Below, one piece after another: positions 28,158 through 52,978 of a stretch of DNA of 61,066 bases. The notes beneath the pieces were generated by a model that saw only the letters and a program-made list of their open reading frames with translations, did no database searches and was not told the DNA's origin. The translations under genes were made by a program, and so were the position numbers. Every line of letters starts with the position of its first letter. The first letter of the stretch is position 1. The stretch spans positions 1,901 through 62,966 of the forward strand of contig JAMWCC010000059.1 of the NCBI GenBank assembly GCA_023818375.1, written 5' to 3'. The stretch is from Candidatus Omnitrophota bacterium. GTDB taxonomy: Bacteria > Ratteibacteria > UBA8468 > B48-G9 > DTJG01.

Positions 28158-28310
28158 TTATGGTATCGACCACAATACTACATTTTCAAATGTCAGTTTT
28201 TCACCTGAATAATACTCAATCGCAGCGTCATTTGTCAGAATATCAAACATGGGGTATCTATCAAATTCAAGGTGATTCAAGACTGCCAGACTTCTTTCTC
28301 TGCTATTCAT
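28158..28310 (-). pseudogene. 50-codon N-terminal fragment of a URO-D-like paralog
   Basis: ATG 28310 lies 1 nt after the stop of the upstream URO-D-like gene. MNSRERSLAVLNHLEFDRYPMFD... parallels MTDRERFCLVMEFKQVDRVPNYE at the N-terminus of ORF 45509. The fragment stops after 50 codons. Confidence 0.5.
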
Positions 28311-28311
28311 T

Positions 28312-29319
28312 TTATTGATTCTGGAGAACTTCTATCATTGCTGCAATGTTTTCAACCTTTGCACCAAAAGGTATTGAATGGGAAGGTGCAGCAATATAAC
28401 CACCATTTTTCCCTATTTCATCAAGCAACCTTCTTACCTGATCTCTTGTTTCCTGAACAGTCCCATATGGAAGCAATTTCTGGGTGCTTATACCACCATA
28501 GAAAGACAGTTGACTTCCAAATCTTTTTTTCATTTCAAAAACATCCATCACCTCTGGCTGGAAAGGATTGAATACATCCAGGCCAGCTTCAATTAGAGAT
28601 GGAAACAATTCATCAACCTTACCACAGGAATGAATAAAAACATATTTCCCCTTTGATTTAGCAAAACCATACATCTGTTTAATCCTGGGCTCAATAAACT
28701 CACGCCACAGATGCGGTCCCATTATAAGGCCTGTCTGCTGTCCCCAATCATCGCCAAACATAACTCCATCAACATCAAAATTACAAAATTTTTCAAGAAT
28801 TTTCAAATTGTACTCCATGATTCTATCAAAAAGTTTGTGAATAAACTTTTTATCCACAACCATTGCCATAAGAAGATTTTCCATTCCAGCCATTGTCCAG
28901 GCTCGCTCAAAAAGGCTGAAACCAATGCCCGCAATACAAAAACAACCTTCTGTGTTGTGAGATAATGAATCTTTCATAACTTTTTCATCAAAGACATAAT
29001 CCGGGTCAGGAAACTGATAAAAGTCAACATTTTCAGGGGATATAACCTGATTACATACTGTACCGATATCCTTGTCTATTGTCTTGTTCCATCTCACGCC
29101 GAAATGGTCTTCCCATATATCTGGCTCAATCTCTTTCCACAATCCTTCTCTTTGCCAACTAACAAAATAAAGAAAATTTCCCAATTTCTCTTCAAACTCA
29201 GGATCATTGTAATACTTTGCCATTTGCTGTCTCACCTTGTACGTAAATCCTATTTGATATGGAACTTTTGAACACTGGTGATGTTCTAATGACTTAATAA
29301 CAAGTTCCCTCTTTGTCAT
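28312..29319 (-). CDS. Uroporphyrinogen decarboxylase (URO-D/MT2)-like family protein, H-x-C-G subtype
   Basis: 335 aa. It shares a family-wide pattern with four other ORFs in the window. Motifs: FGDDWGQQTGLIMGP, FIHSCGKVDELF, GGYIAAPSHSIP. Confidence 0.6.
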   Translation of the reverse strand: MTKRELVIKSLEHHQCSKVPYQIGFTYKVRQQMAKYYNDPEFEEKLGNFLYFVSWQREGLWKEIEPDIWEDHFGVRWNKTIDKDIGTVCNQVISPENVDFYQFPDPDYVFDEKVMKDSLSHNTEGCFCIAGIGFSLFERAWTMAGMENLLMAMVVDKKFIHKLFDRIMEYNLKILEKFCNFDVDGVMFGDDWGQQTGLIMGPHLWREFIEPRIKQMYGFAKSKGKYVFIHSCGKVDELFPSLIEAGLDVFNPFQPEVMDVFEMKKRFGSQLSFYGGISTQKLLPYGTVQETRDQVRRLLDEIGKNGGYIAAPSHSIPFGAKVENIAAMIEVLQNQ

Positions 29320-29385
29320 GTTGCTCCTTTTGGATCATGTTCCATTATAATTTACGCCTTATTTATAAAATTGTAAAATATCAAC

Positions 29386-30126
29386 ATGGAAAAAAACAAG
29401 TTGAAAGAGATCCTCCAGAACTATAAGAACGGCAGATACAACCTTGAAAAAGTTCTTGAAGAATTGAGAATCCTTCCTTTCGCAGACCTGTCTCATTCAA
29501 AAATAGACCATCACAGGGCATTACGACTTGGTTTTCCTGAAGTCATCTATGGAGAAGGCAAAAGTATTGAGCATCTGAAGGAAATAATTCTGGAATTAAA
29601 TAAAAGGTATAAAAGATTCATCGCAACAAGAATATCAAATCAGCAGGCTGAATCTGTTATGAAGGAATTTTCTGATTTAATTTACTTCCCGCAGGCAAGG
29701 ATTCTTACAAAAAAATTGCTTAGAAAACCTGTCAAAAAAGAAGTCGCAGTTATCTGTGCAGGAACTTCTGATTATCCCGTTGCTGAGGAGGCAGCGATAA
29801 CATTGGAAATAATGGGAATAGGAATTGAAAGAATTTATGATGCCGGAATAAGTGGGATACACAGGATTGTTTCACAACTGAAAAAAATTAACAGATGTAA
29901 AATTCTTATCGTTGTGGCTGGAATGGAAGGAGCCCTTCCCGGGGTTGTTGCAGGTCTTACAGGAAAACCTGTTATAGGTGTACCCACATCCATTGGATAT
30001 GGAACAAACCTAAAAGGTTTTGCACCACTGCTTACAATGCTGAATAGCTGCAGTCCAATTGTGGTTGTAAATATTGATAATGGTTTTGGTGCAGCATTTT
30101 TTGCGTATCTTGTGCTGAAAAAATGA
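29386..30126 (+). CDS. larB: Nickel-pincer cofactor biosynthesis protein LarB (PurE-like carboxylase/hydrolase)
   Basis: 246 aa. VAVICAGTSDYPVAEEA, VVAGMEGALPGVVAGLTGKPVIGVPTSIGYG and NIDNGFGAA are the LarB/PurE-like signature. Confidence 0.8.
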   Translation: MEKNKLKEILQNYKNGRYNLEKVLEELRILPFADLSHSKIDHHRALRLGFPEVIYGEGKSIEHLKEIILELNKRYKRFIATRISNQQAESVMKEFSDLIYFPQARILTKKLLRKPVKKEVAVICAGTSDYPVAEEAAITLEIMGIGIERIYDAGISGIHRIVSQLKKINRCKILIVVAGMEGALPGVVAGLTGKPVIGVPTSIGYGTNLKGFAPLLTMLNSCSPIVVVNIDNGFGAAFFAYLVLKK

Positions 30127-30158
30127 AAATCTGGTAAAATATCTGAATACGAAAGGAA

Positions 30159-30494
30159 ATGAAAATGAGCAAGAAAAGTTTTCTTATTATCTTTTTTATG
30201 GTTGTTGCTTTTCTTTCCGGGTGTGCCGTACTACCCTCTTATAGAGCTGAAATGGAAGGAAGAAAAATGATATCGGATTATCCGCTCAATAAGGCAGCTG
30301 TTGCAAGGGCAATAAGTGAACATCGGGTTATTCATGGTATGACAATGGAAGAAGTGATAGAAAGCTGGGGTAATCCTGAAATTGAGCATGAACTTGTAAT
30401 AAACGGTAAGGTTTATTATTCATGGGCATATAAAAAGAACCATAGAACAAGAATCCTTTATTTCCGCCACGGTATCCTTGTTGATATAAAATAA
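30159..30494 (+). CDS. Small lipoprotein, BamE/SmpA-like
   Basis: Lipobox AFLSGC. HGMTMEEVIESWGNPE resembles the BamE (GMTxxQV...LGxP) motif. Confidence 0.35.
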   Translation: MKMSKKSFLIIFFMVVAFLSGCAVLPSYRAEMEGRKMISDYPLNKAAVARAISEHRVIHGMTMEEVIESWGNPEIEHELVINGKVYYSWAYKKNHRTRILYFRHGILVDIK

Positions 30495-30497
30495 GCC

Positions 30498-31037: not shown

Positions 31038-31044
31038 AACAACA

Positions 31045-33381: not shown

Positions 33382-33402
33382 AATTTCACCCCCTTTTCTT
33401 GG

Positions 33403-33906
33403 TTAAAATGTTTTAAAATACTCTTTCGCTGCATTGCAAAGTGGACATCGTTCAGGTGCATCCCCTTCAAGTGTCCAGCCACACACTGTGCATATTGAGA
33501 TTTTTCCAATTTCTATATCCATACCTGCTTCAGCTGCCTGTTTCGCTTTTGTGTATAGACCAGCATGTACCTTTTCGGCAGAAAGTGCATAGTTAATACT
33601 TTTCTGTGCAGTTTTTTCTTCCTGCAATTTTGCCACAGCATCATACGCTGGATACATTTCTTCCACTTCAAAGGTTTCCCCGGATATCGCTGTTTGAAGA
33701 TTTTCAGTTGTTGAACCGCATTCACCCAGTGCCTTCAGGTGATTGGTGGCATGTACCTGCTCTGCAAGTGCAATAGCTTCAAAAAGCCTTGCAATATTGG
33801 GTTTACCTTCTTCTTTTGCTTTGTTTGCGAAAATTAGATACTTCATATGAGCCTGACTTTCGCCTGCAAAGGCAGCTTTTAGATTTGCCTCAGTCATTTT
33901 TTTCAT
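33403..33906 (-). CDS. rbr: Rubrerythrin
   Basis: ATG 33906 follows AAGGAG with an 8-nt spacer. Diiron four-helix motifs (FAGESQAHMKY, LAEQVHATNH, ETFEVEEMYP, SAEKVHAGLY) and a C-terminal rubredoxin-like CTVCG...CPLC. Confidence 0.9.
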   Translation of the reverse strand: MKKMTEANLKAAFAGESQAHMKYLIFANKAKEEGKPNIARLFEAIALAEQVHATNHLKALGECGSTTENLQTAISGETFEVEEMYPAYDAVAKLQEEKTAQKSINYALSAEKVHAGLYTKAKQAAEAGMDIEIGKISICTVCGWTLEGDAPERCPLCNAAKEYFKTF

Positions 33907-33930
33907 AATGAACACTCCTTGTTAGTTATT

Positions 33931-34548
33931 TTATTTAAGTTTTAACGCAATCTCTGCTACTCTCTTACCTAAAAATCTGCATAACTGTTTTTCTTCTTCC
34001 GACAATTCTTTGAAATTTTCATTTAGTCCAACCACATGGCTTGCCCCATATGGAGTACCACCAGTTGAAGTCTTCATCAGTTCCGGCGTACTTGAAGGAA
34101 TACCAACAATAATCATACCATGGTGCAACAAAGTCAACATCGTGGCAAGACATGTTGATTCCTGACCACCGTGAAGAGAAACAGAGGAAGTAAATATGCC
34201 AGCTGGTTTTCCCTTAAGGGCACCTTCAAGCCACAATGGTCCGGTTTTATCAAGAAAGTTTCTCATCTGGCTGCACATGTTTCCAAACCTTGTTGGAGTT
34301 CCTATAAGAAGTCCATCACAATTTCTCAAATCATCAAGTGTTGCTTCAGCAACATCCTTTTGCCATTCAATCGCTCTTTGAATATCCTTGTTCTTGCTTA
34401 TTACGGACTCTGGGAGCAAATCTGGTACTTTTCTCAGTATTGCCTGTGCATTCTCAACTTGTGAAATACCATTACAAACTTCAAGTGCCATTTTGAACAC
34501 ATTTCCGTACATACTGTAGTAAAGTACCAGTATCTTTGTTTTTTCCAT
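33931..34548 (-). CDS. wrbA: NAD(P)H:quinone oxidoreductase, WrbA-type flavodoxin-like
   Basis: KILVLYYSMYGNV, GTPTRFGNMCSQMRNFLD, FTSSVSLHGGQEST. Confidence 0.85.
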   Translation of the reverse strand: MEKTKILVLYYSMYGNVFKMALEVCNGISQVENAQAILRKVPDLLPESVISKNKDIQRAIEWQKDVAEATLDDLRNCDGLLIGTPTRFGNMCSQMRNFLDKTGPLWLEGALKGKPAGIFTSSVSLHGGQESTCLATMLTLLHHGMIIVGIPSSTPELMKTSTGGTPYGASHVVGLNENFKELSEEEKQLCRFLGKRVAEIALKLK

Positions 34549-34557
34549 AGAAATGTC

Positions 34558-34950
34558 TCACTCAACAATTTCTATTGGTTTTTCACCCTGCCACAGACCA
34601 TGAAGATTGCACATCTCCCATGCTTTCAAAATACCGTGGCTGTGAGAAAGCTTTACCCTGAATGTCACCTTAGGTGCAGAAGAACCACCATTGAAATAAG
34701 CCCTTGCTAAAAATGTATCTCCGCTATAAAGTTCTACCCACTCAATAAAATGACCTGGCTCATTGGGATGCGGGAAAAGTTTACCAACCTCAATGGTCAC
34801 ATCAAATTCTTCATCTTTTTTCACTTTATCAGGAGCAGTTATCACAGGAGTGTGTTTTTTCTCAAAGTCGGTCATATTCGATGGATCCTTAGGCCTATTT
34901 ACACCACACAGAATATCATTTTCACACTTATATACTTTCTTCTCTTCCAT
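34558..34950 (-). CDS. Superoxide reductase (desulfoferrodoxin family) with incomplete N-terminal Dx-like domain
   Basis: Centre II motifs EKKHTPV, HPNEPGHFIEW and CNLHGLW. The N-terminus VYKCENDILCG has only two Cys and no CCG motif. Confidence 0.8.
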   Translation of the reverse strand: MEEKKVYKCENDILCGVNRPKDPSNMTDFEKKHTPVITAPDKVKKDEEFDVTIEVGKLFPHPNEPGHFIEWVELYSGDTFLARAYFNGGSSAPKVTFRVKLSHSHGILKAWEMCNLHGLWQGEKPIEIVE

Positions 34951-34995: not shown

Positions 34996-35409
34996 TCATT
35001 TTTCTTTAGCAAAAATCAGGTTCCCTTCTGCGAATAATTCAACCTCAACTTCCTTCAGAAGAGCACTCCTTGGAATTTTTGATATGCTATTAACCGCAAC
35101 AAAAATATAAGGAATACTATTAACAAAGCCACCTATTTTGATATTGGCTCCATTTTTCCCACTAACCATAATTCCAATCTTCCCCTCTTTATCTTTCACA
35201 AGACAGCCCACTGCAGGCGTTTTTGAAAAAACTGGTCTTGATGGATTCCAGCAGGTTGTAACCCTGCGCCTCTTAAGATTACCAAACTCATCAGGTAGAC
35301 ACACAGAACGAATTTCAACCTTTTTTCTACCCGCAGAAATATCTTTACTCAGAAATTTCCATACCATTGACTTTTTGATTTTATGATTTATTCTATCATA
35401 AATCAGCAC
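34996..35409 (-). CDS. Hypothetical protein
   Basis: 137-aa ORF with no motif I can assign. The start may be the internal Met at 35367, because the GH3 gene start is only 27 nt from 35409. Confidence 0.4.
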   Translation of the reverse strand: MLIYDRINHKIKKSMVWKFLSKDISAGRKKVEIRSVCLPDEFGNLKRRRVTTCWNPSRPVFSKTPAVGCLVKDKEGKIGIMVSGKNGANIKIGGFVNSIPYIFVAVNSISKIPRSALLKEVEVELFAEGNLIFAKEK

Positions 35410-35436
35410 CTTTTAGAATTAGGGAAGGAGGTCAAA

Positions 35437-37551
35437 ATGGATGAAAGAATAAAAAAATTTTTATCAAAAATGTCCATTGAAGAAAAGGTCGCCCAGATTT
35501 CCTGTATTGAAAGAAATGAATTGCTTGAAAACGAGTATTTTTCAGGTTCAAAAGCGGAAAGAGTATTAAGAAATGGTGCAGGCCATATCAGTCCTGTTTT
35601 AAGACCATTTGATCCTGAAACAGGCACACCAATTTCAAATGAAATTCAAAAGATTGCGATGAATAGTGGTCCAAAAATTCCTGTAATTATTCATGATGAA
35701 TGTCTTCACGGATGTATGGCTAAAGGTTCAACAAGTTTCCCTCAGTCAATCGCTCTTGCAAGCAGCTGGGAACCAGAAATGGTAGAAAAGGTTGCACAGA
35801 TTATAGGTAAGGAAACAAGGGCAAGGGGAATTCATCAGGCACTTTCACCTACAATAAATATAGCAAGGGACGCAAGACATGGAAGGGTTGAAGAAACCTA
35901 TGGAGAAGATCCGTATTTGACTTCCCTGATGGCTGTTGCGTTTATAAAAGGATTACAAAGCCAGAAGGTTATAGCCACTCCAAAGCACTTTGCCACTGAC
36001 TTTGCGAGTGATGGTGGAAGAGACAGCGGACCCACTTTTTTTTCTGAAAGAATCCTGAGAGAAATTTTCTTTCCTGCTTTTAAAGCAAGCATAATGGAGG
36101 CAAAGGCACAAAGTTTAATGGCTGCCTACAATTCAATAAATGGAATTCCTTCTTCATCAAACAGATGGCTTTTAACTGAGGTGCTGAGAAAAGAATGGGG
36201 TTTTGAAGGTTTTGTTGTTTCAGATTATGGTTCTGTCTGGGGACTTTACGCAAGCCATCGTGTGGCTGGGTCCCTCGCAGAAGCAGGAAAACTTGCACTT
36301 GAAGCAGGGCTTGATATTGAAATCCCAAATTCGCCGTGTTTTTCATATCTTGTTCAACTTGTTAAAGAAGGAAAGATTTCTCAATCAGTTATTGACACAG
36401 CGGTTGAAAGAATTTTGAAGGGAAAATTGTGGCTTGGACTATTTGACAATCCTTTTTCAGACCCTGAAAAAGCAGCAAAAATCTGTGATTGTGATGAGCA
36501 TAGAAAATTTGCCCTTGAAGCTGCAATGAAGTGTATTGTACTTCTTAAAAACAATGGAATTTTGCCACTGGCAAAAGATATTGGGTCTATCGCAGTAATT
36601 GGTCCAAATGCTGATGCAGTACGGCTTGGTGGGTACAGTGGATTTGGCATAAAGGTAGTGACTGCCCTTGAAGGAATAAACAATAAAATTTCAAAAAGAA
36701 CAAAACTTTATTTTGCTGAAGGCTGCAGGGTTAATGACACATCAAAGTCAGGTTTTGCAAAGGCAATTTCTGCTGCAAGTAAAGCAGATATTGCAATACT
36801 TGTTATGGGAAATTCTTCAGAAACAGAAGGAGAAAACAGAGACAGATGTAATCTTAATCTTCCTGGTGTTCAGGAAAATTTGATAAAAGCAGTTGCTGAT
36901 ACAGGAACTCCTGTAGTTGTGGTTTTGATTAATGGAAGTGCAATTACCATGACAAACTGGATTAACTATGTTGATGCAGTAATTGAAGCATGGTATCCTG
37001 GAGAAGAAGGTGGAAATGCAATAGCAAATGTAATCTTTGGAGATTACAATCCTTCTGGCAAACTTCCTATAACATTTCCGCGCTATACAGGACAGCTTCC
37101 ACTTTATTACAATCATCTTCCATGTTTGAGAAAATATGACTATGTTGAAGTAAGAGGATTTCAACCCATGTTTCCGTTTGGTTATGGCCTCAGTTATACT
37201 AATTTTGAATATAAGAATTTGAGGGTTTCACCAGAAACAATCTCAAAAAAAGATAGTGTAAAGGTTTCTGTAGAAATTGAAAACACAGGAAAATATGAAG
37301 GAGATGAGGTTGTACAACTTTATCTCAGGGATATGGTTTGCTCTGTGATAAGACCTGTTAAAGAGCTAAAGCAATTTAAGAAAATACATCTTAAGCCAGG
37401 AGAAAAAAAGGCGGTTGAATTTTCATTAACCCAGCAGGATCTTTCTTTCCTTGATGAAAATCTCCAACCAAAAATAGAACCAGGCACATTTGAAGTTATG
37501 GTGGGACCAGATAGCGCAAACATTTTAAAAACAACATTTGAGGTGAAATAA
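35437..37551 (+). CDS. Glycoside hydrolase family 3 (beta-glucosidase/BglX-like) with C-terminal Fn3-like domain
   Basis: ATG 35437 follows GGAAGGAGG. Motifs: MSIEEKVAQ, DARHGRVEETYGEDPYL, KHFA, GFVVSDYGS (nucleophile region), and a C-terminal GDEVVQLYLRD Fn3-like segment. Confidence 0.85.
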   Translation: MDERIKKFLSKMSIEEKVAQISCIERNELLENEYFSGSKAERVLRNGAGHISPVLRPFDPETGTPISNEIQKIAMNSGPKIPVIIHDECLHGCMAKGSTSFPQSIALASSWEPEMVEKVAQIIGKETRARGIHQALSPTINIARDARHGRVEETYGEDPYLTSLMAVAFIKGLQSQKVIATPKHFATDFASDGGRDSGPTFFSERILREIFFPAFKASIMEAKAQSLMAAYNSINGIPSSSNRWLLTEVLRKEWGFEGFVVSDYGSVWGLYASHRVAGSLAEAGKLALEAGLDIEIPNSPCFSYLVQLVKEGKISQSVIDTAVERILKGKLWLGLFDNPFSDPEKAAKICDCDEHRKFALEAAMKCIVLLKNNGILPLAKDIGSIAVIGPNADAVRLGGYSGFGIKVVTALEGINNKISKRTKLYFAEGCRVNDTSKSGFAKAISAASKADIAILVMGNSSETEGENRDRCNLNLPGVQENLIKAVADTGTPVVVVLINGSAITMTNWINYVDAVIEAWYPGEEGGNAIANVIFGDYNPSGKLPITFPRYTGQLPLYYNHLPCLRKYDYVEVRGFQPMFPFGYGLSYTNFEYKNLRVSPETISKKDSVKVSVEIENTGKYEGDEVVQLYLRDMVCSVIRPVKELKQFKKIHLKPGEKKAVEFSLTQQDLSFLDENLQPKIEPGTFEVMVGPDSANILKTTFEVK

Positions 37552-38603
37552 TGTCCATAGAAATATTTAAAAAAATCTTGAATCTTGAGTACACAGAAAG
37601 AATTGGAAGGACTGAATACTGTGACCATCCATCTTTGATTAAACATATCACTGGGCTTGATCCTAAAAATCCCGAGCAGGTGCAGAAGGCATATGAAAAA
37701 TTTTATGAATGGGTCCCTTATGATTTTTTGTGGTCAACAAACGATGGACCTGTACAATGGAGTGAACTTGGTAGGACAACTGACATGGGACACGCTATTT
37801 ACCAGGAAGATGGATCTGATTATAGAAAACCAAAACCATGCCCTTTTAAATCAGTAGAAGAGGTACTGAATTTTGATGCTGTGAAAGAATACGGAAATTT
37901 TGATATTGATGAGAGAGCAGAATATTTTAAAAAATCACTTGAGAATACTCAAAATAAATTTTCTGATACTCTGGTAGCAGCCGGCTATTATAAAACCATT
38001 GTTTCAGGCTGTATTGAAGCTTTTGGCTGGGAAATGTTTCTTGAAGCAGTCGGGTCAGATCCAGAAAGATTTGGTGATTATGTCCTTGAAGGATTCTTTA
38101 ACCTGACATTGGCAAATTTTCAGGCTTGGGCAAAAGCAAAACCAGTTTTCTTTATCTGTCACGATGACATGGTCTGGACAAACGGCGCTATATTTAACCC
38201 TACCTGGTACAGAAGATATATCTTCCCGAGATACAAAAAACTCTGGGCTGTTTTTAAACAACAGGGGATAAAAATTCTTTTCTGCTCTGATGGCAACTAT
38301 ACAGAATTTGTAGATGATATCGCACAGGCAGGCGCAGATGGCTTTATTTTTGAACCCCTCACTGATTTGGAAGCGATTGTAAAAAAATATGGAAAAACCC
38401 ATGTTATTGTTGGAAACGCAGATTGCAGGATACTGACCTATGGAACAAAACAGGATATTGAGAAAGAGGTCCTGAGATGCATCAACACTGCAAAAGATTG
38501 CCCTGGGTTTGTGATGGCTGTAGGAAATCATATTCCACCAAATGTACCAATAGACAATGCAATGTTTTATTTTGATATAGTGAAAAAATACGGAAAAAGA
38601 TAG
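37551..38603 (+). CDS. URO-D/MT2-like family protein, x-S-D-G-N subtype
   Basis: 350 aa. The ATG overlaps the GH3 stop (TAATG). Motifs: ILFCSDGNYTEFVDD, GNADCRIL, GFVMAVGNHIPPNVP. Confidence 0.55.
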   Translation: MSIEIFKKILNLEYTERIGRTEYCDHPSLIKHITGLDPKNPEQVQKAYEKFYEWVPYDFLWSTNDGPVQWSELGRTTDMGHAIYQEDGSDYRKPKPCPFKSVEEVLNFDAVKEYGNFDIDERAEYFKKSLENTQNKFSDTLVAAGYYKTIVSGCIEAFGWEMFLEAVGSDPERFGDYVLEGFFNLTLANFQAWAKAKPVFFICHDDMVWTNGAIFNPTWYRRYIFPRYKKLWAVFKQQGIKILFCSDGNYTEFVDDIAQAGADGFIFEPLTDLEAIVKKYGKTHVIVGNADCRILTYGTKQDIEKEVLRCINTAKDCPGFVMAVGNHIPPNVPIDNAMFYFDIVKKYGKR

Positions 38604-43384: not shown

Positions 43385-43414
43385 TTGACAATTTATGTGC
43401 GAATACTTTATATT
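43385..43414 (+). promoter_or_regulatory. Candidate sigma70-type promoter for the ADP-ribosylglycohydrolase operon
   Basis: TTGACA (43385-43390), 18-nt spacer, TATATT (43409-43414). It lies about 45 nt upstream of GTG 43459, which has an AAAGGAG RBS. Confidence 0.35.
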
Positions 43415-45495: not shown

Positions 45496-45508
45496 AAAAG
45501 GATATGCA

Positions 45509-46621
45509 ATGACAGACAGAGAAAGGTTTTGTCTTGTAATGGAATTCAAGCAGGTTGATAGGGTGCCAAATTATGAGCTCGGGTTATGGGGACAGACAAT
45601 CAAAAGGTGGCAGGAAGAAGGACTGCCAGTGGATTCTTTATATTTCAGCTGGTTTGAGGGAGAGCCATATTTCAAAATAGACAGACGCGCTTTTGCACCG
45701 ATAAATGTCGGAATGATACCCGGTTTTGAGTATCAGGTCATTGAGGAAGACGAAAGAACAATTACGGCAAGGCATGAAAATGGAATTGTAACAAAGGCAT
45801 TAAAACAAGGTACAGTGCGGGGTACAAGAATGTGTATGGATCAGTATATCTCCTTTCCTGTCACTGATAAAGATAGTTACCAACAGATTAAAAAAAGATA
45901 TGATCCATCTTCACCTATTAGATACCCCTTATGGTGGAACGAGATGGTCAAGATGTGGAAAACAAGGTCATACCCGCTGTGTCTTTTAAGAAATGCTTCT
46001 TTTGGGCTTTATTCACAACTTCGCAGGTGGGTGGGAACAGAAAACATTTCTTATATGTTCTACGATGACCCTGTGCTTGTTGAAGAGATGATAGATTTCA
46101 ACACGAATTTTTTACTCTCACTTGTTGAAAAGGCACTCAATGAGATTGACTTTGACTATTTCAATTTTTTTGAGGATTTTGCAGGAAAGGGTGGTCCATT
46201 AATATCACCCGAGATATTTAAAAAATTCTTCATGCCTTATTACAAAAAAATCATTGAGCGATTCAGAAAAGCAGGAATAAAATATTTCTGGCTTGACAGC
46301 GATGGAAACTGCGAGGTGTTAATACCACTGATGATTGAATGCGGAATTAATTGTTTATGGCCCCTTGAGCAGGCGTCAGATATGAACCCTGTAAGATTAC
46401 GGAAGAAATTCGGGAAAAACATTGCTTTTGCTGGAGGAATAGACAAAAGAGTTCTTGCTATGGGTAAGAAAGATATTGAAAAAGAACTGTACTCAAAAAT
46501 ACCAAATCTTGTTGAATCTGGTGGCTACATTCCAACTATAGACCATACTGTTCCACCCGAAGTCTCACTTGAAAATTTTGCCTATTACATAGAATTAAAA
46601 ATGAAACTTCTCTCAGGATAA
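45509..46621 (+). CDS. URO-D/MT2-like family protein, D-S-D-G-N subtype
   Basis: 370 aa. Motifs: MTDRERFCLV...VDRVPN, FFEDFAGKGGPLISP, FWLDSDGNCEVLIPLMIECGIN, GGYIPTIDHTVPPEV. Confidence 0.6.
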   Translation: MTDRERFCLVMEFKQVDRVPNYELGLWGQTIKRWQEEGLPVDSLYFSWFEGEPYFKIDRRAFAPINVGMIPGFEYQVIEEDERTITARHENGIVTKALKQGTVRGTRMCMDQYISFPVTDKDSYQQIKKRYDPSSPIRYPLWWNEMVKMWKTRSYPLCLLRNASFGLYSQLRRWVGTENISYMFYDDPVLVEEMIDFNTNFLLSLVEKALNEIDFDYFNFFEDFAGKGGPLISPEIFKKFFMPYYKKIIERFRKAGIKYFWLDSDGNCEVLIPLMIECGINCLWPLEQASDMNPVRLRKKFGKNIAFAGGIDKRVLAMGKKDIEKELYSKIPNLVESGGYIPTIDHTVPPEVSLENFAYYIELKMKLLSG

Positions 46622-46623
46622 AA

Positions 46624-47397
46624 TTACCTGTTCCTGCCACCAGGTCTGCGCCACGGAGAATCAGATGAGGGACTGGTTCCTGAATCATCAGTCCTTCGCC
46701 AGCGCGGTCCAGTATCTGTGGAAGATGGCGGGACTTGGAAAAACGAACCTGGCACAGATGGTTGACCTGTTGAAACGGTATCTGGTCTCTGAAAACTGGT
46801 TCTTAAACTCTCCATGATTGTCTGGCTTTCTGCAATCTGCGCCTGATATTCTTGGTTATCCTGAAGGATTTTTTGCAAGAGGGTCTGGCGTTGTTGATTA
46901 AGCTCTCTTATTTGCTGATCAATTTCCCTAATCCTGGGGTCCTGTGCTGCCTGTCTTTCAATCGCTGCCAGTCTCATGGTATCCTGTGCCTGAAAATCAC
47001 CTGAAGCTATTTTTTGTTTCAGCTGTTGATATTCAAAATTGTCTGCAAGTATTTCGTCAAGAAGGGCCTTTCTTTTTTGTTGGAGCTCATTAATTTTATC
47101 CATTATTGCCTTGATCTCAGGATTTTGTTGAGAAGTGTCATCCTCTATTTTCCTCATCGTGGTGCGAATTTCCTGCAACCTCCTGATTGATTGTTCCCTT
47201 TCTTCCCTTGAAAGTCCCTGTTGCTGGGGTTGCTTTGGTTGAGGTTGGGTCTTTATATTTGTTTCACCAACAACGCCTGATGAAAGATGAATAATCTCAA
47301 ATTCTTCAAGGTTCAATTGAGCCTGGAAAGAATCTGATTGCTGAGCATTTAAAACACAGCAAGAAAGAAATACCAAAAACAGTAAAATTTTATTCAT
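46624..47397 (-). CDS. Secreted Q/E-rich coiled-coil protein (two copies of a ~35-aa module)
   Basis: Signal peptide MNKILLFLVFLSCCVLNA. Modules: NPEIKAIMDKINELQQKRKALLDEILADNFEYQQLKQKI and DPRIREIDQQIRELNQQRQTLLQKILQDNQEYQAQIAES. Confidence 0.6.
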   Translation of the reverse strand: MNKILLFLVFLSCCVLNAQQSDSFQAQLNLEEFEIIHLSSGVVGETNIKTQPQPKQPQQQGLSREEREQSIRRLQEIRTTMRKIEDDTSQQNPEIKAIMDKINELQQKRKALLDEILADNFEYQQLKQKIASGDFQAQDTMRLAAIERQAAQDPRIREIDQQIRELNQQRQTLLQKILQDNQEYQAQIAESQTIMESLRTSFQRPDTVSTGQPSVPGSFFQVPPSSTDTGPRWRRTDDSGTSPSSDSPWRRPGGRNR

Positions 47398-47482: not shown

Positions 47483-47499
47483 CTTATATCCTATCCAGC

Positions 47500-47847
47500 C
47501 TACTTTTTGGGCGCTTCCTTTGCAGGTGGTGGCGGCATCAATTCTGATAGCTGTTTTTTCAATGCCTGATATTCTTCATTCTTCTCAAGAAGAGTTTCAA
47601 GTCTTGCCCTGCGCTGTTTTTCAAGCTCCTGCATCTGTGCTGTAATTTTCTTGCATTCTTCATCCTGGGAAGCAACCTGTCTTTCAATGGCTCTCATTTT
47701 CCCTTGAATTTCTGCCGCTTGTTTCTTTTTAGCTGCAATCTCCTCCTGCGAAGGTGGAGGTTGACCCGGTTTTTCCTGCGCATTGAGAGCAACTGCATAA
47801 CCTAAAACCAAAGTACAAGCCATAATAAACAATATCAAATATTTCAT
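47500..47847 (-). CDS. Secreted coiled-coil protein (one copy of the same module)
   Basis: ATG 47847 follows AAGGAGGTGA. Signal peptide MKYLILFIMACTLVLGYAVALNA. Module: DEECKKITAQMQELEKQRRARLETLLEKNEEYQALKKQL. Confidence 0.65.
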   Translation of the reverse strand: MKYLILFIMACTLVLGYAVALNAQEKPGQPPPSQEEIAAKKKQAAEIQGKMRAIERQVASQDEECKKITAQMQELEKQRRARLETLLEKNEEYQALKKQLSELMPPPPAKEAPKK

Positions 47848-47897
47848 GTTTTCACCTCCTTTTCTGATATTCTTATTTTTTAGATTAGTGTTTTTAT

Positions 47898-49043
47898 TCA
47901 AGGTTTAGTATCCTGTGCTCTGATTTTATTCACAAGATTTACAAAAAACCTTATATTTCGTTCAACCTTCTCGCCTGATTTTGTAATTATAACCACAATA
48001 TCAACCCGCCTGTCTTTGCAAACATCTACAATTTCAGAAACAGCTTTGTATATATTTTCTTCTGTTTCGTTTTCAAAATCAAATTGCGGTGGATGAAGTG
48101 TTATCTGAAGATGTGTATGGGGTAAAGCCTCCTTCAATTTTTTCATCGCCCCTCTTACGTATCTTGTCTGCATAAAAACAATTTTTTCCCTGTTAGGATA
48201 TTTCGCCCATACATCATAAAGGTGAACCGAGAGACCACAGGAATGCAAATTGCAAAAGAGGTCACCATATTTTTGAACAAGCTTCAAGTCAAAACCCATT
48301 GCGTATTTTTCATAGAGAGCAGGAGAAAGCATACAGGAAAAATCTCCCCCAAAAGAACTTATCCCATTAAATTGTTTTATGCCATAAAAATTATGCAAAA
48401 ATTCAGTGTAACTTGTGCTCAGCTTAAAACAAAACTCAAGCATCGCATACCCTAATTCAGGATTTGAAGCAAGTGTAACAAAAAAATCTTCTGTTCCCCA
48501 AAGAAAATGGCCGATATCGATGAATGTGAAAAATACCGCAAAACATACCTTTTTTCCGTTGAATTCCCTATGCCAAACAACAAATTCTTCTGAATGAGGA
48601 TATTTGTTTCTTTTTGCCAGTTTCTCATTATACTCGATCATTTTTCTTATCAGAATCTGATCCTGCCATACGGGAACTTTAAGGCTTCGAACATATTCAA
48701 TGGAATCAGCCCATCTCAAAGGTGGATTTGTCCTGTCAAACCAGAACATGCTTTCTTCTTCGATCCACCTTGGTTGACCTGCGCCATAAGCCATGGCACA
48801 GACATGCCTTGGATCCGGCTGAAGATAGTAATAGATAGGTTTCGGTTGAGGATCACCAAGTCCAATATCTGAAAATCTTTCATAAAGTTTCTTACTAATT
48901 TTGATTGAAATTTCAACAATTTCATCAGGGTCTGTTTTCCATGGATTTGGATTTCTTATACCGAATTCTCTTTCATACCATTGCGAAGTAAAAGTAACGA
49001 CCGGCTTTATTTTGGACTTTTCTTCACCGTTCATTATTCGCAA
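47898..49043 (-). CDS. URO-D/MT2-like family protein (divergent), H-x-C-G subtype
   Basis: 381 aa; the start may be ATG 49034. FGGDFSCMLSPALYEKY and CNLHSCGLSVHLYD parallel FGDDWGQQTGLIMGP and FIHSCGKVDELF of ORF 28312. Confidence 0.45.
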   Translation of the reverse strand: MRIMNGEEKSKIKPVVTFTSQWYEREFGIRNPNPWKTDPDEIVEISIKISKKLYERFSDIGLGDPQPKPIYYYLQPDPRHVCAMAYGAGQPRWIEEESMFWFDRTNPPLRWADSIEYVRSLKVPVWQDQILIRKMIEYNEKLAKRNKYPHSEEFVVWHREFNGKKVCFAVFFTFIDIGHFLWGTEDFFVTLASNPELGYAMLEFCFKLSTSYTEFLHNFYGIKQFNGISSFGGDFSCMLSPALYEKYAMGFDLKLVQKYGDLFCNLHSCGLSVHLYDVWAKYPNREKIVFMQTRYVRGAMKKLKEALPHTHLQITLHPPQFDFENETEENIYKAVSEIVDVCKDRRVDIVVIITKSGEKVERNIRFFVNLVNKIRAQDTKP

Positions 49044-49061
49044 CCCTAATTAAATTTTAGT

Positions 49062-50054
49062 TCACCATGCGTAGGATTCTGGCGCCTGCCCTGGACCAGG
49101 AAAAATCTCGTCAAGCTCCTTCAATATTTCGTTGTCCAGTTTTATTTCAGTTGCGCGTATAACACTTTCAAGTTGTTGCACAGTCCTTGGTCCAATAATT
49201 GGAGCCGTAACCACGGGATTATGTAGAAGCCACGCAAGCGCTATAACTGCTGGTTCTTCGCCAATTTTCTTACAGAGTTTCTCAAATCTTTCAATCTGAT
49301 GCTTTTTTTCCTGATATGTTTTAAGAAGCCCCTGGTCTGAACGTCTCCCATCAGTTTTTTCCTTGATCCCGGCAAGAAGGCCACCGGCAAGGGGACTATA
49401 AGGAATAAAACCCAATCCATAATACTGGCAGGCTGGAAGAACTTCAAGTTCCACTGTTCTATTCATAAGGTTGTAGATGCTCTGCTCACTCACGAGTCCT
49501 GCCAAATTTCGTTTTTGTGCTTCCTGACATGCAGTTGCAATATCCCATCCAGCAAAATTACTTGAGCCCACATAAACAATTTTTCCCTGATTTATCAAAG
49601 AACCAAATGCCTGCCAAATTTCATCCCAGGGACATTGCCTGTCAATGTGATGCATCTGATATATATCAATCCATTCAGTTTGTAGCCGACGCAGACTGTT
49701 TTCACAATGTTTTTTTATCTTCATTGCAGAAAGACACCTAGTCTCTGAATTTGGTTCAGGCCTGTTTTCTTTTCTTTTAACAGGATTGTATACCTTTGTA
49801 GCAAGGACGACTGCCTGTCTTCTTCCATTTCCCTGCGCGAACCATCTGCCAATAATAAGTTCTGTATCGCCGTGCTGACCAGACCATCCATAAACATCAG
49901 CAGTATCAAAAAAATTTATTCCCAATTCAAGTGCTCGATCCATAATCTTGAAACTGTCCTTTTCAGATGTGTACCAGCCAAAATTCATTGTGCCAAGACA
50001 GATATTGCTCACAAGTACTCCGTGCTTACCGAGTCGTCTATATTCAATCGCCAT
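49062..50054 (-). CDS. Aldo/keto reductase
   Basis: YRRLGKHGVLVSNICLGTMNFG, GINFFDTADVYG, IYQMHHID and SNFAGW are the classic AKR signature. Confidence 0.9.
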   Translation of the reverse strand: MAIEYRRLGKHGVLVSNICLGTMNFGWYTSEKDSFKIMDRALELGINFFDTADVYGWSGQHGDTELIIGRWFAQGNGRRQAVVLATKVYNPVKRKENRPEPNSETRCLSAMKIKKHCENSLRRLQTEWIDIYQMHHIDRQCPWDEIWQAFGSLINQGKIVYVGSSNFAGWDIATACQEAQKRNLAGLVSEQSIYNLMNRTVELEVLPACQYYGLGFIPYSPLAGGLLAGIKEKTDGRRSDQGLLKTYQEKKHQIERFEKLCKKIGEEPAVIALAWLLHNPVVTAPIIGPRTVQQLESVIRATEIKLDNEILKELDEIFPGPGQAPESYAW

Positions 50055-50177
50055 ATCACTCCTTTTCTTAAAGATACTGCTATTGGGTTTATTTCAACAG
50101 TTTTTCAAAATTTGTCAAGAGTGATAAAATTTAAAGTAATTTTCATATCATAATAACCAAGGATCAAAACAAAGTCA

Positions 50178-51317
50178 ATGAAAACAAAATTATGGTCTTC
50201 CTGTGAAGTGGCAAAGCCATCAAAAAAACAGGATATCATCGTATATCGCGACGATGAATATTGCTCAAACTGGCCGATGAGCGGTGGTATGTGGCGTTTT
50301 GATGATGATGAAATTTTGGTAGGATTCACCAGATTAAAGGTCGACTACAAAAAAGTTGGTTCCACAAATCATCTACACCTTGACACCTGGGGCCAGTTGT
50401 GCCTTGTAAGGTCCAAAGATGATGGTGAAACATGGGAAAATGAAGTTGAGGTTGTGGTAAACAAGCGTGATGTGGCAATTGAATTTTTTCAGGAAGGAAA
50501 ACAAAACATGAACCAGAACCCTGTTGATTTCACATCTCCAGATACAATATTGCTATGTAATTATGTCGGAGAACATCTGTGGGCAAAAACTTATGGTGAG
50601 GTCAGGTTCTGGAGCATGATTATGGCTTCCCCTGATCGGGGTAAGTCCTGGCCACTCGGTCCCATAATTAAGAAACCTCGACACCTTTTTAGCGCCTGGG
50701 GACTGCCAAATTATGTCATTCGTCCCAATGGAAATGTTTTAATTTTCAATGACTGTGTTCCCTGTGAAAACGAGAAAGATGGTCAGATGTATATTTACTG
50801 TGATATTCTTGAAAATAATGGACTCTGCTGGAATTATTTTGGTATATTGCCTTTAGAAAGGCGTGATGCAAGATTAATCATACATGGCTCACCTGTGATG
50901 ATAGGTGAAACTTCCATTCTCCTTGCTGTACGAGCACAAACGCCGCCAAATATTGTGTATGTCATGCTATATCGCAGCGATGATTATGGAAGAAACTGGT
51001 ACACTATTGGCCGTGTAACAGATATTGGTGGTACGCCGCATCTTTTGAGGTTGCGCGATGGTAGAATTCTCTTAACTTATGAAAGACGTTTCCCCCCTTG
51101 TGGAATCCGGGCGCGCATATCCGAAGATGCTGAAGGCATTATATGGGGGCCAGAAATTGTACTGCGCGACGACGGCGGGAGTGACATCGGATATAGCCGC
51201 AGTGTACAGAGAAAGGACGGCTCAATACTTACAGTTTATTATTTTGTAAATGCCGCGGAACGCAAGAATAACCAGGAACCGACACGGTATATTGCTGGCA
51301 CAATATGGAAACCATAA
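50178..51317 (+). CDS. BNR/Asp-box beta-propeller (sialidase-like)
   Basis: Asp-boxes RSKDDGETW, SPDRGKSW, RSDDYGRNW, and VQRKDGSIL. No signal peptide. Confidence 0.6.
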   Translation: MKTKLWSSCEVAKPSKKQDIIVYRDDEYCSNWPMSGGMWRFDDDEILVGFTRLKVDYKKVGSTNHLHLDTWGQLCLVRSKDDGETWENEVEVVVNKRDVAIEFFQEGKQNMNQNPVDFTSPDTILLCNYVGEHLWAKTYGEVRFWSMIMASPDRGKSWPLGPIIKKPRHLFSAWGLPNYVIRPNGNVLIFNDCVPCENEKDGQMYIYCDILENNGLCWNYFGILPLERRDARLIIHGSPVMIGETSILLAVRAQTPPNIVYVMLYRSDDYGRNWYTIGRVTDIGGTPHLLRLRDGRILLTYERRFPPCGIRARISEDAEGIIWGPEIVLRDDGGSDIGYSRSVQRKDGSILTVYYFVNAAERKNNQEPTRYIAGTIWKP

Positions 51318-51326
51318 TTTGTTTTA

Positions 51327-51964
51327 ATGAGCAAAGACCAGACACACCAGATAATCATTGATTTTGACGGAGCAAAAAAGAAAGTATTCAAAGAATGCAA
51401 GGAAGAATCAATGAACCAGCGGCTTGAGTATCCAGTACAAGACCGGAAAACATGGAATGAGTATAAAAAAAGGTTGGACCCGGATTTTCCATTAAGATTT
51501 CCATGCTGGTGAGAAGATGAAAAGAAAAAATACAAAGATGTAACTTATCCTGGGGGAGTTTCTGCTGGAAATTTTTTTGGCTGGATGCGGACTTGGATCG
51601 GGATGGAACATTTAAGTTATCTCATCACTGATAACCCTGTGCTTATAGAGGAAATACAGGAGCATCTGGAATATCTTTTTCTTTCAGCTTTGAAAAAGGC
51701 TTTGAATGACACAAGAGTGGATTGCCCATTTCTGAAAGGATATGGCTTTATAAAAATGGTTCCCTTGTTTCTCCTAATTTCGTGAAAAAATTCATGGTGC
51801 CCCATTATAAAAAGGTTGTGGAACTTCTTCATTCAAAAGGAGTGGATATTATCACACTGGATTTAGACGGAAATATCTGGAAATTAATTCCTCTGCGGAT
51901 TGAATGTGGAATAAACGGGGTTATGCCGAATGAAGATGTGCCATTCAGTAATTATATATATTAG
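51327..51964 (+). pseudogene. Decayed URO-D-like paralog (nonsense mutation + frameshift + truncation at both ends)
   Basis: Three ORF pieces align colinearly with ORF 45509. RLDPDFPLRFPCW-TGA matches RYDPSSPIRYPLWW. MRTWIGMEHLSYLITDNPVLIEE matches LRRWVGTENISYMFYDDPVLVEE. After a frame change, NGSLVSPNFVKKFMVPHYKK...LDLDGNIWKLIPLRIECGIN matches GGPLISPEIFKKFFMPYYKK...LDSDGNCEVLIPLMIECGIN. Confidence 0.75.
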
Positions 51965-52015
51965 CTCGAAACCTTGAGAAAACTGGTATCATGATAAAAT
52001 ATTGAAAAAGGAGAT

Positions 52016-52978
52016 ATGATGAAAAAAGTACCACTTGCAAATCCAAAACCTGATATTGAAACACAAAAAAAATATTTTCTTAATAGCATTGAAGTTTACT
52101 ACAAAATGGGCTATGACTTTTATAGAATTACTGGTGCTGTTGGGCTTGCCTTTCCCGGAAAGACAAGACAGGGCAAAGACACCGCCATATTTTCAAGAGG
52201 AACAAGAAACTGGGCAGAAGAAAAACAGGGTCCAATTTCAAGCTGGGAGGATTTTGAATGTTATCCCTGGCCTGACCCAAGAAAATTTGACTACTGGTAC
52301 TATGATTTTATTTCAAAAAATCTTCCTGATGGAATGGGTATACTTGTATGCCCTTCAAGTGGTTTTCTTGAAATACCCCTTGACACGCTTTTTGGATACG
52401 AAAATTTATGTTATTTGATGTATGATGAGCCAGATCTTGTTTCTGCTGTTTTCAGAAAGGTTGGAGAAATTTTGTATGCCTATTATGAACACATAACAAG
52501 CCTTCCAAAACTTGTTGGTTTTTTCCAAGGAGATGATATGGGATTTAAAACTGGAACCCTTGTTCCACCTGAGTTTTTGAAGACCCACGTCCTACCGTGG
52601 CACAAAAAGCTTGCAGAACTTGCTCATAAAAACGGTTTGATATATCTTTTACATGCATGCGGAAACCTTGAAAAGATAATGCCTGATTTGATTAATGATG
52701 TAAAAATTGATGGAAAACATTCTTACGAAGATGAAGGAAATCCTGTTTGGGAAACAAAAAAGAAATATGGGGATAAGATTGCAGTTCTTGGTGGAATTGA
52801 TGTTGATAAACTTGCAAGATACGAAGAAAATCAGCTAAGAAATCATGTAAAGAAAATTCTTGATTTATGTATGCCAGGCGGAAGATACTGCCTGGGTTCA
52901 GGAAATACTGTAACAAACTATATACCATTGAGAAACTATTTCGCAATGGTTGAGGAAGGACTGAATTACTGTGGTTGA
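52016..52978 (+). CDS. URO-D/MT2-like family protein, H-x-C-G subtype
   Basis: 320 aa with an AAGGAG RBS. Motifs: FFQGDDMGFKTGTLVPP, YLLHACGNLEKIMPDL, VLGGIDVDKLA. Confidence 0.6.
   Translation: MMKKVPLANPKPDIETQKKYFLNSIEVYYKMGYDFYRITGAVGLAFPGKTRQGKDTAIFSRGTRNWAEEKQGPISSWEDFECYPWPDPRKFDYWYYDFISKNLPDGMGILVCPSSGFLEIPLDTLFGYENLCYLMYDEPDLVSAVFRKVGEILYAYYEHITSLPKLVGFFQGDDMGFKTGTLVPPEFLKTHVLPWHKKLAELAHKNGLIYLLHACGNLEKIMPDLINDVKIDGKHSYEDEGNPVWETKKKYGDKIAVLGGIDVDKLARYEENQLRNHVKKILDLCMPGGRYCLGSGNTVTNYIPLRNYFAMVEEGLNYCG

Follow-up and report, generated by a model that had tools for sequence, protein, structure and literature searches.

The stretch of DNA analysed here (the window) comprises 61,066 nucleotides of a contig (JAMWCC010000059.1) from a Candidatus Omnitrophota bacterium and carries, between positions 28158 and 52978, five genes (U1 to U5) whose products are members of the UroD/MtaA/MetE TIM-barrel superfamily. 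Fold and superfamily are already known. It is new that several large orthologous groups of this superfamily have altered sets of ligand positions, that no corrinoid partner was found for them in the sets searched by us, and that they are statistically tied to genes of the fucosidase and sialidase type. We propose that the copies are cytoplasmic, corrinoid-independent UroD-fold metalloenzymes which act on sugar-derived molecules freed by adjacent exo-glycosidases, and we regard the chances of this proposal being right or wrong as about equal.

A first-pass annotation of the stretch, made from the sequence alone, had described an expanded enzyme family interleaved with glycosidase-like genes and had suggested that it acts on a sugar-derived substrate, with demethylation or decarboxylation of modified sugars as candidate reactions. 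The observation is confirmed in part by the analysis presented below, and the interpretation receives partial support.

Five copies of the UroD superfamily

The five open reading frames (ORFs) are given with their strand, length, score for the Pfam family URO-D (PF01208) and motif:

U1: 28312-29319, minus strand, 335 amino acids, 93 bits, H-x-C type, IHSCG
U2: 37551-38603, plus strand, 350 amino acids, 86 bits, CSDGN type
U3: 45509-46621, plus strand, 370 amino acids, 59.5 bits, DSDGN type
U4: 47898-49043, minus strand, no Pfam match, LHSCG, divergent superfamily member from a rare family
U5: 52016-52978, plus strand, 320 amino acids, 55 bits, LHACG, N-terminally truncated relative to its own family

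The gathering cut-off of URO-D is 23.9 bits. The Pfam scan of all copies, which had been proposed by the first-pass annotation, yielded scores above this value for U1, U2, U3 and U5, i.e. for four of the five named ORFs. For U4 no match to any Pfam or NCBIfam model was found, even at E=1. The description of all five ORFs as one family thus holds for four of them in terms of PF01208, and for U4 at the level of the superfamily by its predicted fold and a profile comparison.

The U4 family is rare, with 19 database matches including U4 itself, and a precomputed PF01208 assignment exists for 6 of these 19. Its invariant motifs are N.HSCG.S.HLY..W, QTR and PQ.D. Comparison with hhalign of the U4 family to the U1 family gave a probability of 81% (E 1.3e-5) with HSCG aligned to HSCG, the comparison to the U2 family was uninformative (5% probability), and a profile search of the PDB with the U4 family returned matches at chance level only. 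The AlphaFold2 (AF2) model of U4 (pLDDT 91.7) finds UROD and MtaA as its best structural matches (TM 0.5-0.62, E 4e-7), followed by MetE in a second tier. The profile match to the U1 family together with the UROD- and MtaA-like model therefore identifies U4 as a divergent member of the superfamily. The AF2 model of U2 (pLDDT 91.6) has UROD as its top structural match (TM 0.67-0.74, E 7e-12). Ketose 3-epimerases and a 3-keto-glucoside lyase appear in the second tier of the Foldseek matches of U2 (TM ~0.4), which in our view reflects a general resemblance among TIM barrels and gives no evidence of function.

In an alignment of the five copies a single column separates IHSCG (U1), LHSCG (U4) and LHACG (U5) from CSDGN (U2) and DSDGN (U3), and a pseudogene at 51327-51964 shows DLDGN at the same place. 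The motif split seen by the first-pass annotation is hence correct. Its division into two subtypes, however, falls short, as there are in fact five orthologous groups, each with an invariant motif of its own and each under separate purifying selection. The pairwise BLASTP identity among U1, U2, U3 and U5 is just 23-31%, over the C-terminal 150-250 residues. The copies are therefore ancient paralogues and do not stem from a recent local expansion of the family, contrary to what had been assumed.

Conservation of the orthologous groups

In the following counts each protein of the U1 and U2 groups stands for one cluster at 90% identity, and the clusters of the U5 family were formed at 50% identity. 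The U2 group comprises 1654 homologues at E<1e-5, which are 50-81% identical and originate from Candidatus Omnitrophota/Ratteibacteria, Desantisbacteria, Armatimonadota, Anaerolineae and Planctomycetota. Orthologues of U2 are located in more than 558 genome loci, among them one of the cultured Fontivita pretiosa. Among 23 sequences of this group the invariant residues include E22, D58, D65, R75, H81 and Y146-Y147-K148 in the N-terminal part and H204-D205-D206, C245-S246-D247, E268, D291 and N326-H327 in the C-terminal part. Most of them lie at or just past the predicted strand ends of the AF2 model, and the strand ends are the usual location of the active centre of a TIM barrel.

The U1 group is even larger, with more than 7800 homologues that are about 60% identical across Caldiserica, Kiritimatiellae, Poribacteria and Hydrogenedentes. 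Its invariant residues include H230-S231-C232-G233-K234, Q254, E256 and H314. For U3 the invariant residues among 19 homologues are E222-D223, D263, D265, E287, K313 and H346, and the U5 family has an invariant H213, an invariant C215 and a nearly invariant N297.

U1 to U4 are of full length and have kept every invariant residue of their own group. Their orthologues in related metagenomic contigs are 75-86% identical with retained synteny, which indicates purifying selection. Judged by these alignments, each intact copy stands locally for a separate orthologous group that is conserved and uncharacterised. That many members of the superfamily are uncharacterised has been acknowledged (PMC10418091).

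Residues at the metal-site positions

To compare the copies with MtaA we list the residues at positions 1 and 3 of the motif and at the β-8 position:

MtaA: position 1 H, position 3 C, β-8 C
U1: position 1 H (H230), position 3 C (C232), β-8 H (His314)
U2: position 1 C, position 3 D, β-8 N (then H)
U3: position 1 D, position 3 D, β-8 H
U5: position 1 H, position 3 C, β-8 N

In U4 just the H-S-C motif could be mapped. The alignment to 4AY7 places "APSHSIP" of U1 opposite "APGCGIA" of MtaA, so that a His replaces the third zinc Cys. This Cys corresponds to Asn in U2 and U5 according to the alignment, and to His in U3 according to the motif position. The H-x-C copies had been thought to carry the start of the zinc motif H-x-C-xn-C, but the third Cys is His in U1 and Asn in U5. 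After the next strand a Glu is invariant in U2 (E268) and U3 (E287), while the Glu in the consensus "SFED" of the U5 family is less strict. At this position U1 has Gln254, with Glu256 two residues further on.

The D-G-N type does lack H-x-C, as the first-pass annotation stated. A plain loss of the metal site, however, does not agree with the invariance of C-x-D or D-x-D, of the Glu and of the β-8 His or Asn within the groups; the site is not simply lost. The D-G-N types have kept a harder, carboxylate-rich set of residues, which may bind a metal.

A corresponding variation is documented for related enzymes. The S-methyltransferases of the superfamily possess His-Cys-Cys zinc ligands, and in the O-demethylases one or both Cys are exchanged for carboxylates or for residues that are no ligands, which favours an oxygen ligand (PMC10418091). 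UroD-fold O-demethylases without any zinc exist as well (PMC13222342). The C-x-D of U2 and the D-x-D of U3 match the pattern of carboxylates in place of Cys, a pattern that is permissive and not diagnostic.

The copies do not fit the functions known for the family. The scores for the NCBIfam models of MtaA/CmuA, MtbA and HemE are all at most 63 bits, compared to cut-offs of 235-600. An identity as HemE was rejected: TIGR01464, with a cut-off of 303, scores at most 30 bits for U2 and 22 for U3, and does not match U1, U4 and U5. An identity as classical methylcobamide:CoM methyltransferase (MT2) was rejected as well, as the best score of TIGR01463/NF004889 is 63 bits (U1) against cut-offs of 235-244, the His-Cys-Cys triad is incomplete and the genomic context is a different one.

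With MtaA/MtbA (4AY7) and CmuA the copies share the TIM-barrel fold and the Pfam family, and it is to these enzymes that the top sequence matches in NCBIfam and the PDB belong. U1, U4 and U5 have H-x-C at the same position, in contrast to C-x-D and D-x-D in U2 and U3. The copies nevertheless score 4-10 times below the family cut-offs, have His or Asn in place of the third zinc Cys, and are found in a context of glycosidases with no corrinoid protein detected nearby, whereas the context of MtaA, MtbA and CmuA is methylotrophy. HemE/UROD is the best structural match of the U2 model and belongs to the same Pfam family, and the His of U1 and U3 occurs at the position of the β-8 His of UROD. On the other hand, the N-terminal ~100 residues of the copies are not matched by the Pfam model, and there is no haem-pathway context: no haem or tetrapyrrole genes were detected among the window ORFs scanned (all ORFs of at least 150 amino acids and several shorter ones) or in the neighbour families listed for the U2 orthologues. 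MetE is a double-barrel enzyme with His-Cys-Glu-Cys zinc ligands. It belongs to the same superfamily, functions without a corrinoid and is the second-tier structural match of U4, but the copies have no Meth_synt Pfam match and their genomic context differs.

OdmB, VdmB, MtvB and CdmB (9RUI), UroD-fold methyltransferases from O-demethylase and dehalogenase systems of bacteria, are likewise members of the superfamily, with zinc ligand sets that are variable or absent, and they occur as multiple paralogues per genome. Their substrates are aromatic methyl ethers or methyl halides, bound in hydrophobic cavities (PMC13222342), while the conserved residues of the copies are polar. They also differ from the copies in being encoded together with partner proteins, to which we turn now.

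Search for corrinoid partners

Characterised UroD-fold methyltransferases are encoded in a cluster with a corrinoid protein, a methyltransferase II (MTII) and an activase (PMC13222342, PMC10418091). None of these was found for the copies in the following sets. No B12-binding Pfam domain occurs in the window ORFs scanned, and neither a corrinoid protein nor an MTII nor an activase was detected among these ORFs of 61 kb that hold five copies. At 63 loci of U2 orthologues we considered two sets of neighbour ORFs, 240 in all, and the B12-binding domain is absent from the 25 commonest Pfam families listed for each set. A regular expression for corrinoid proteins (DxHxxG...SxL...GG) had 0 matches in 742 locus ORFs. 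The statement that no haem-biosynthesis, methanogenesis or corrinoid gene is located nearby is therefore confirmed for the window ORFs scanned against Pfam.

The lack of partner genes in these sets argues against a corrinoid-dependent sugar O-demethylation. According to this alternative, which we regard as unlikely, the copies would be the methyltransferase I (MTI) of corrinoid-dependent O-demethylases for O-methylated sugars, e.g. 2-O-methyl-fucose or 8-O-methyl-sialic acid, and would share partners encoded elsewhere. Chemically this alternative is attractive. The top-scoring NCBIfam models are indeed methyltransferases of the MtaA/CmuA type (63 bits for U1 compared to a cut-off of 235), U1 aligns with MtaA over the H-x-C region, and CdmB (9RUI) is the second PDB match of U1. 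UroD-fold O-demethylases with a carboxylate in place of Cys or without zinc (PMC10418091, PMC13222342) fit the C-x-D and D-x-D types, and multiple paralogues per locus are typical of the MTI families of demethylases. The host also looks anaerobic, as judged by its rubrerythrin and desulfoferrodoxin genes, and the carbohydrate demethylases in the literature searched by us are aerobic P450 enzymes only, which leaves an anaerobic route as an open niche.

The characterised systems are clustered, and such partners were detected neither in the window ORFs scanned nor in the neighbour families listed for the 63 U2 loci; both points stand against this alternative. The cavity of CdmB is hydrophobic and aromatic (PMC13222342), whereas the groups described here conserve many charged residues. 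U2 orthologues are furthermore present in Chthonomonadales, Capsulimonadaceae and Gemmatimonas. These are mostly aerobic lineages. As a matter of general chemistry a sugar alkoxide is a poor leaving group, which is a further argument against this alternative.

Glycosidase genes next to the copies

To investigate the context of U2 in other genomes we surveyed the 63 orthologous loci, with 98 genes at the positions directly adjacent to U2 (±1) and 142 genes at the positions ±2/3. The families at ±1 (n=98) include URO-D paralogues (9), Alpha_L_fucos (5), GH3 (4), DUF4838/GH67N (4), Gfo/Idh/MocA (3) and AraC regulators (3), and the genes at ±2/3 look random. With the count restricted to families that have two or more reported members, glycoside hydrolase (GH)-like genes account for 13 of the 98 genes at ±1 compared to 2 of the 142 at ±2/3 (Fisher p=2.4e-4), and URO-D paralogues for 9 of 98 compared to 2 of 142 (p=0.009). 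A search for one conserved partner of U2 covered the positions ±1 to ±3 and found none.

Three unrelated fucosidase families recur beside the U2 orthologues. A neighbour of 664 amino acids in locus L001 matches the α-L-fucosidase 6TVK, which we take to be a member of GH151, with E 5e-144, the neighbour in L004 is of the GH29 type, and in Fontivita pretiosa the U2 orthologue (L072, 6001-7026) has as its neighbour a DUF5703/GH95-like gene, which is followed by one for an MR_MLE enzyme. A tblastn search located any of the three families (GH29, GH151, GH95-like) within ~6 kb in 13 of 83 U2 loci, and any GH-like family searched for in 20 of the 83.

We further report that two metagenome-assembled genomes of Chthonomonadales/Chthonomonadaceae (L055, L064) contain four URO-D genes of differing subtypes within 13 kb each, in both cases three paralogues and a U2 orthologue. 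Multi-paralogue arrays are therefore present in other phyla, too.

In the window itself the copies are surrounded by the following genes:

35383-37551, plus strand: GH3 glycosidase with Fn3-like domain (Pfam Glyco_hydro_3, Glyco_hydro_3_C, Fn3-like); no signal peptide; first in the U2 operon
38612-40318, plus strand: GH156-like exosialidase homologue, 568 amino acids; no Pfam match above threshold, weak GHL10
40321-41721, plus strand: candidate BNR/sialidase-like propeller, 466 amino acids; Pfam BNR_2 at E 0.0034, below cut-off
41718-42992, plus strand: weak SIS-domain protein (PRK02947 E 5e-11, SIS_2 E 0.0037) with signal-peptide-like N-terminus; last in the U2 operon
43459-45495, plus strand: two-domain ADP-ribosylglycohydrolase (ARH), 678 amino acids; PF03747 at E 2.5e-39 in the C-terminal half and 6.9e-5 in the N-terminal half
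46624-47397 and 47500-47901, minus strand: small coiled-coil proteins, predicted to be secreted, with signal-peptide-like N-termini and no specific Pfam family; downstream of U4
49062-50054, minus strand: aldo/keto reductase (AKR), PF00248 at E 6.6e-69; 19 nucleotides upstream of U4
50178-51317, plus strand: BNR_2 sialidase-like propeller, PF13088 at E 2e-11; no signal peptide
52966-53844, minus strand: EamA/DMT transporter (Pfam)
53850-55154, minus strand: Gfo/Idh/MocA oxidoreductase (Pfam)

The identities given by the first-pass annotation to the GH3, BNR/sialidase-like, double ADP-ribosylglycohydrolase, AKR, Gfo/Idh/MocA and DMT transporter (Pfam EamA) genes were all recovered by Pfam. The protein encoded at 38612-40318 was compared to the PDB with phmmer and matches 6RZD, "exosialidase from uncultured bacterium pG7", with E 5.7e-23 (query residues 114-422, chain residues 100-381). 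We take 6RZD to be the structure of the founding member of GH156. The protein is thus probably a cytoplasmic member of this small, recently defined sialidase family.

The gene coordinates and a promoter-like site at 43385-43414, with 11 of 12 positions matched, suggest the following transcription units:

Plus strand: GH3, U2, 38612-40318, 40321-41721 and 41718-42992, with junctions of -1, 8, 2 and -4 nucleotides
Plus strand: two-domain ADP-ribosylglycohydrolase, then U3, with a junction of 13 nucleotides
Minus strand: AKR, U4, then the two secreted coiled-coil proteins, with 19 nucleotides between AKR and U4
Plus strand: BNR_2, the pseudogene, then U5
Minus strand: Gfo/Idh/MocA, then EamA

It had been stated that every copy sits in a tight operon. 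According to coordinates and Pfam this is not true for U1, which is isolated between an OEP efflux gene on one side and a divergent AIRC/LarB-like gene on the other. Inspection of the N-termini did not reveal a signal peptide on the URO-D copies or on the GH3, GH156-like, ARH, AKR and both BNR proteins, which points to a cytoplasmic processing of imported glycosides.

The degree to which these units are retained in other genomes differs. The order GH3, U2, GH156-like gene, BNR-like gene is kept in the closest relatives only (L005-L009), with the homologue of 40321-41721 following the GH156-like gene in all five. A GH156-like homologue is also present in L048. The pair of ARH and U3 is conserved in L089, L090, L092, L095 and L107, down to 57-63% identity, and in more distant relatives of U3 an apiosidase-like gene (Pfam PF13204, presumably equivalent to GH140) and a GH20b-like gene follow. 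The AKR is conserved in L090 and L091. Both of these loci keep the two coiled-coil genes, and L089 and L092 have the homologue of 46624-47397 alone. In L091 both coiled-coil genes still adjoin the AKR, though U4 is missing.

Operons for sugars or sugar acids also contain members of the U4 and U1 families. Members of the U4 family are found in an operon with the order URO-D, AP_endonuc_2, 2-Hacid_dh, U4, MR_MLE, and near a fucose-isomerase-like gene. Members of the U1 family are located in a GH4/GH43/GH94/GH52 cluster, beside BNR_2 and AP_endonuc_2, and beside a sulfatase. The repeated pairing with glycosidases that had been described for the window is found for the U2 type across phyla, and ARH and U3 form a retained pair. 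As most U2 loci (63 of 83) have none of the glycosidase families searched for within ~6 kb, this link exists but is loose.

As an alternative, the copies might be unconnected with the glycosidases and catalyse another chemistry, e.g. a thiol alkylation or a cofactor- or tetrapyrrole-like decarboxylation; their adjacency would then stem from a genome rich in carbohydrate-active enzymes and with loose operons. The heterogeneous contexts, including the random appearance of the ±2/3 genes, the 63 of 83 U2 loci without the GH families searched for, the isolated U1 of the window and a U1 orthologue located between alaS and ruvX speak for such an explanation, and sequences conserved this well between phyla suggest a general metabolite. 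We nevertheless consider it improbable. The GH genes are enriched specifically at ±1, and the three fucosidase families recurring next to U2 orthologues are unrelated to each other. The junctions are tight (one shared base between GH3 and U2, 8 nucleotides between U2 and the GH156-like gene, 13 between ARH and U3, 19 between AKR and U4), and the orders ARH-U3 and GH3-U2-GH156-like are conserved.

A possible role on released sugars

The family and fold, the motif conservation, the enrichment of neighbouring glycosidases and the lack of a corrinoid partner in the searched sets are observations. From the invariant polar residues, rich in carboxylates and His, at the zinc positions of MtaA and MetE we infer that the copies are cytoplasmic metalloenzymes which stand alone, i.e. 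function without a corrinoid partner. Their metal would have an oxygen of a small sugar-derived substrate as a ligand. The copies would act directly after the neighbouring cytoplasmic exo-glycosidases, which here are the GH3 enzyme, the GH156-like sialidase and the BNR propellers, and elsewhere the GH29, GH151 and GH95-like fucosidases, DUF4838 proteins and, near U3-type relatives, the apiosidase-like (PF13204) protein. The freed terminal sugar might be converted by removal of a substituent, by decarboxylation or by isomerisation, for example, and the adjacent oxidoreductases (AKR, Gfo/Idh/MocA) might take over after this step. Metal binding, sugar substrate and position in the pathway are the inferred parts of this proposal.

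Several points weigh against it. The tblastn search did not locate any of the glycosidase families searched for within ~6 kb in 63 of the 83 U2 loci, and one U1 orthologue is found between alaS and ruvX; the link to glycans is hence statistical and not obligatory. The enrichment was counted from the 25 commonest Pfam families per set, so that neither set registers the rarer domains or the GH families with a single member. The H-x-C types are still closest to methyltransferases according to NCBIfam. The metal site is putative, being derived from alignment, and the conversions named above are candidates.

It is a more tentative suggestion, and in our view rather a doubtful one, that the groups with C-x-D and D-x-D (U2, U3), possibly joined by those with H-x-C...H/N, form a new corrinoid-independent class of UroD-fold metalloenzymes with an undescribed reaction on terminal sugars. 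Cleavage of O-methyl or other ethers, or decarboxylation of sugar acids, on sugars freed by fucosidases or sialidases could be examples of such a reaction. If true, anaerobes and many uncultured phyla would gain a route for "capped" sugars which is so far known via aerobic P450 demethylases only.

A role on sugars had been described as not established for this family, and this agrees with the literature found by us: the papers concern corrinoid methyltransferases and P450 sugar demethylases only, none links the family to sugar metabolism, and no sugar-related function is assigned to it. Members of the UroD superfamily are usually labelled "uroporphyrinogen decarboxylase" or "methylcobamide methyltransferase", and neither label suits several of its groups that are very large. 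These groups are highly conserved in Omnitrophota, Armatimonadota, Planctomycetota, Anaerolineae, Kiritimatiellae and other phyla, and tend to adjoin exo-glycosidases of the fucose and sialic acid type. The reaction, once found, would correct a widespread misannotation and might fill a gap in the pathways by which uncultured bacteria degrade decorated glycans. The copies thus represent a good lead towards a new sugar-processing reaction, not yet a solved one, and the cultured carrier Fontivita pretiosa makes the question testable.

Remnants and turnover of the array

Two remnants had been assigned to the family by the first-pass annotation:

51327-51964, plus strand: pseudogene of a U3-type copy with DLDGN, an in-frame stop and a frameshift (three-frame translation)
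28158-28310, minus strand: possible N-terminal URO-D fragment of 50 amino acids, directly after the stop codon of U1

The first one is a real pseudogene, by its stop, its frameshift and its BLASTP identity to U3 (36% over 107 amino acids, 49% over 63 amino acids). It is truncated at both ends, with ~80 of the first and ~80 of the last codons gone. For the second one the profile matches are weak, with 8.3 bits to positions 1-39 of the U1 family and 6.6 bits to positions 7-47 of the U3 family, so that an N-terminal URO-D fragment is plausible.

U5 had been counted among five intact copies. Its reading frame is open and has a ribosome-binding site, but its product is short of conserved sequence. 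At E<=1e-3 the U5 family comprises 4770 representative clusters. The best matches have 355-380 amino acids and align from their residue ~58 on. Pairwise global alignments and an alignment of 20 sequences both show that U5 lacks ~45 N-terminal residues which all 19 aligned homologues possess. Among the lost positions are the Pro and Asp of the consensus "PDRVP..EL..D", both nearly invariant; we take this segment to be strand β-1. U5 may be in the process of decay, possibly via the same rearrangement that truncated the adjoining pseudogene.

In related loci U4 is split into two fragments (L090, 8203-9119) or absent (L091, 2373-3807), and U3 is split (L092, 551-1663). URO-D paralogues seem to decay repeatedly in this lineage, while one must keep in mind that frameshifts in metagenome assemblies could be errors. 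With U5 truncated, one or two remnants, and U4 broken or lost in close relatives, the family is turning over in this lineage.

The array as a whole might accordingly be regarded as largely genomic debris, with several copies inactive or being lost after duplication or transfer and no working system. The pseudogene, the possible fragment, the missing N-terminal segment of U5 and the split or missing U3 and U4 of the relatives are what such an explanation could build on. We hold it to be very unlikely, as U1, U2, U3 and U4 are of full length with all group-invariant residues, and as the identity and synteny of their orthologues indicate purifying selection. The partial decay is real, yet it is no explanation for the full-length conserved copies.

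Further genes of the window

The gene divergent from U1 (29386-30126, plus strand, 246 amino acids) has an AIR-carboxylase domain in its C-terminal half, and we assume its product to be LarB-like. Genes for LarA, LarC and LarE were not seen in the window. Upstream of the U2 operon, at 33403-34950 on the minus strand, genes for a rubrerythrin, an FMN reductase/flavodoxin-like protein and a desulfoferrodoxin form an oxidative-stress cluster that is typical of strict anaerobes, which suggests that the host is an anaerobe. A desulfoferrodoxin gene is again located near U2 in the three closest relatives.

The window is rich in genes for glycan degradation beyond positions 28158-52978 as well, taking together a weak GH32N match (2779-4242), a secreted protein of 1110 amino acids with a GH42M domain (5082-8414, minus strand), an N_methyl/DUF1559 pseudopilin-like protein (8437-9174, minus strand) and a β-helix/GH141-like protein (9226-11223, plus strand). 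On the other side of the array a protein of 909 amino acids (55256-57985, plus strand) matches Antibiotic_NAT (aminoglycoside 3-N-acetyltransferase) at residues 642-857 only and has a large N-terminal part without Pfam match, which is an unusual architecture. It is followed by a glutamate dehydrogenase of 1008 amino acids (57982-61008, minus strand) of the large NAD-GDH type (Bac_GDH_CD and ELFV_dehydrog).

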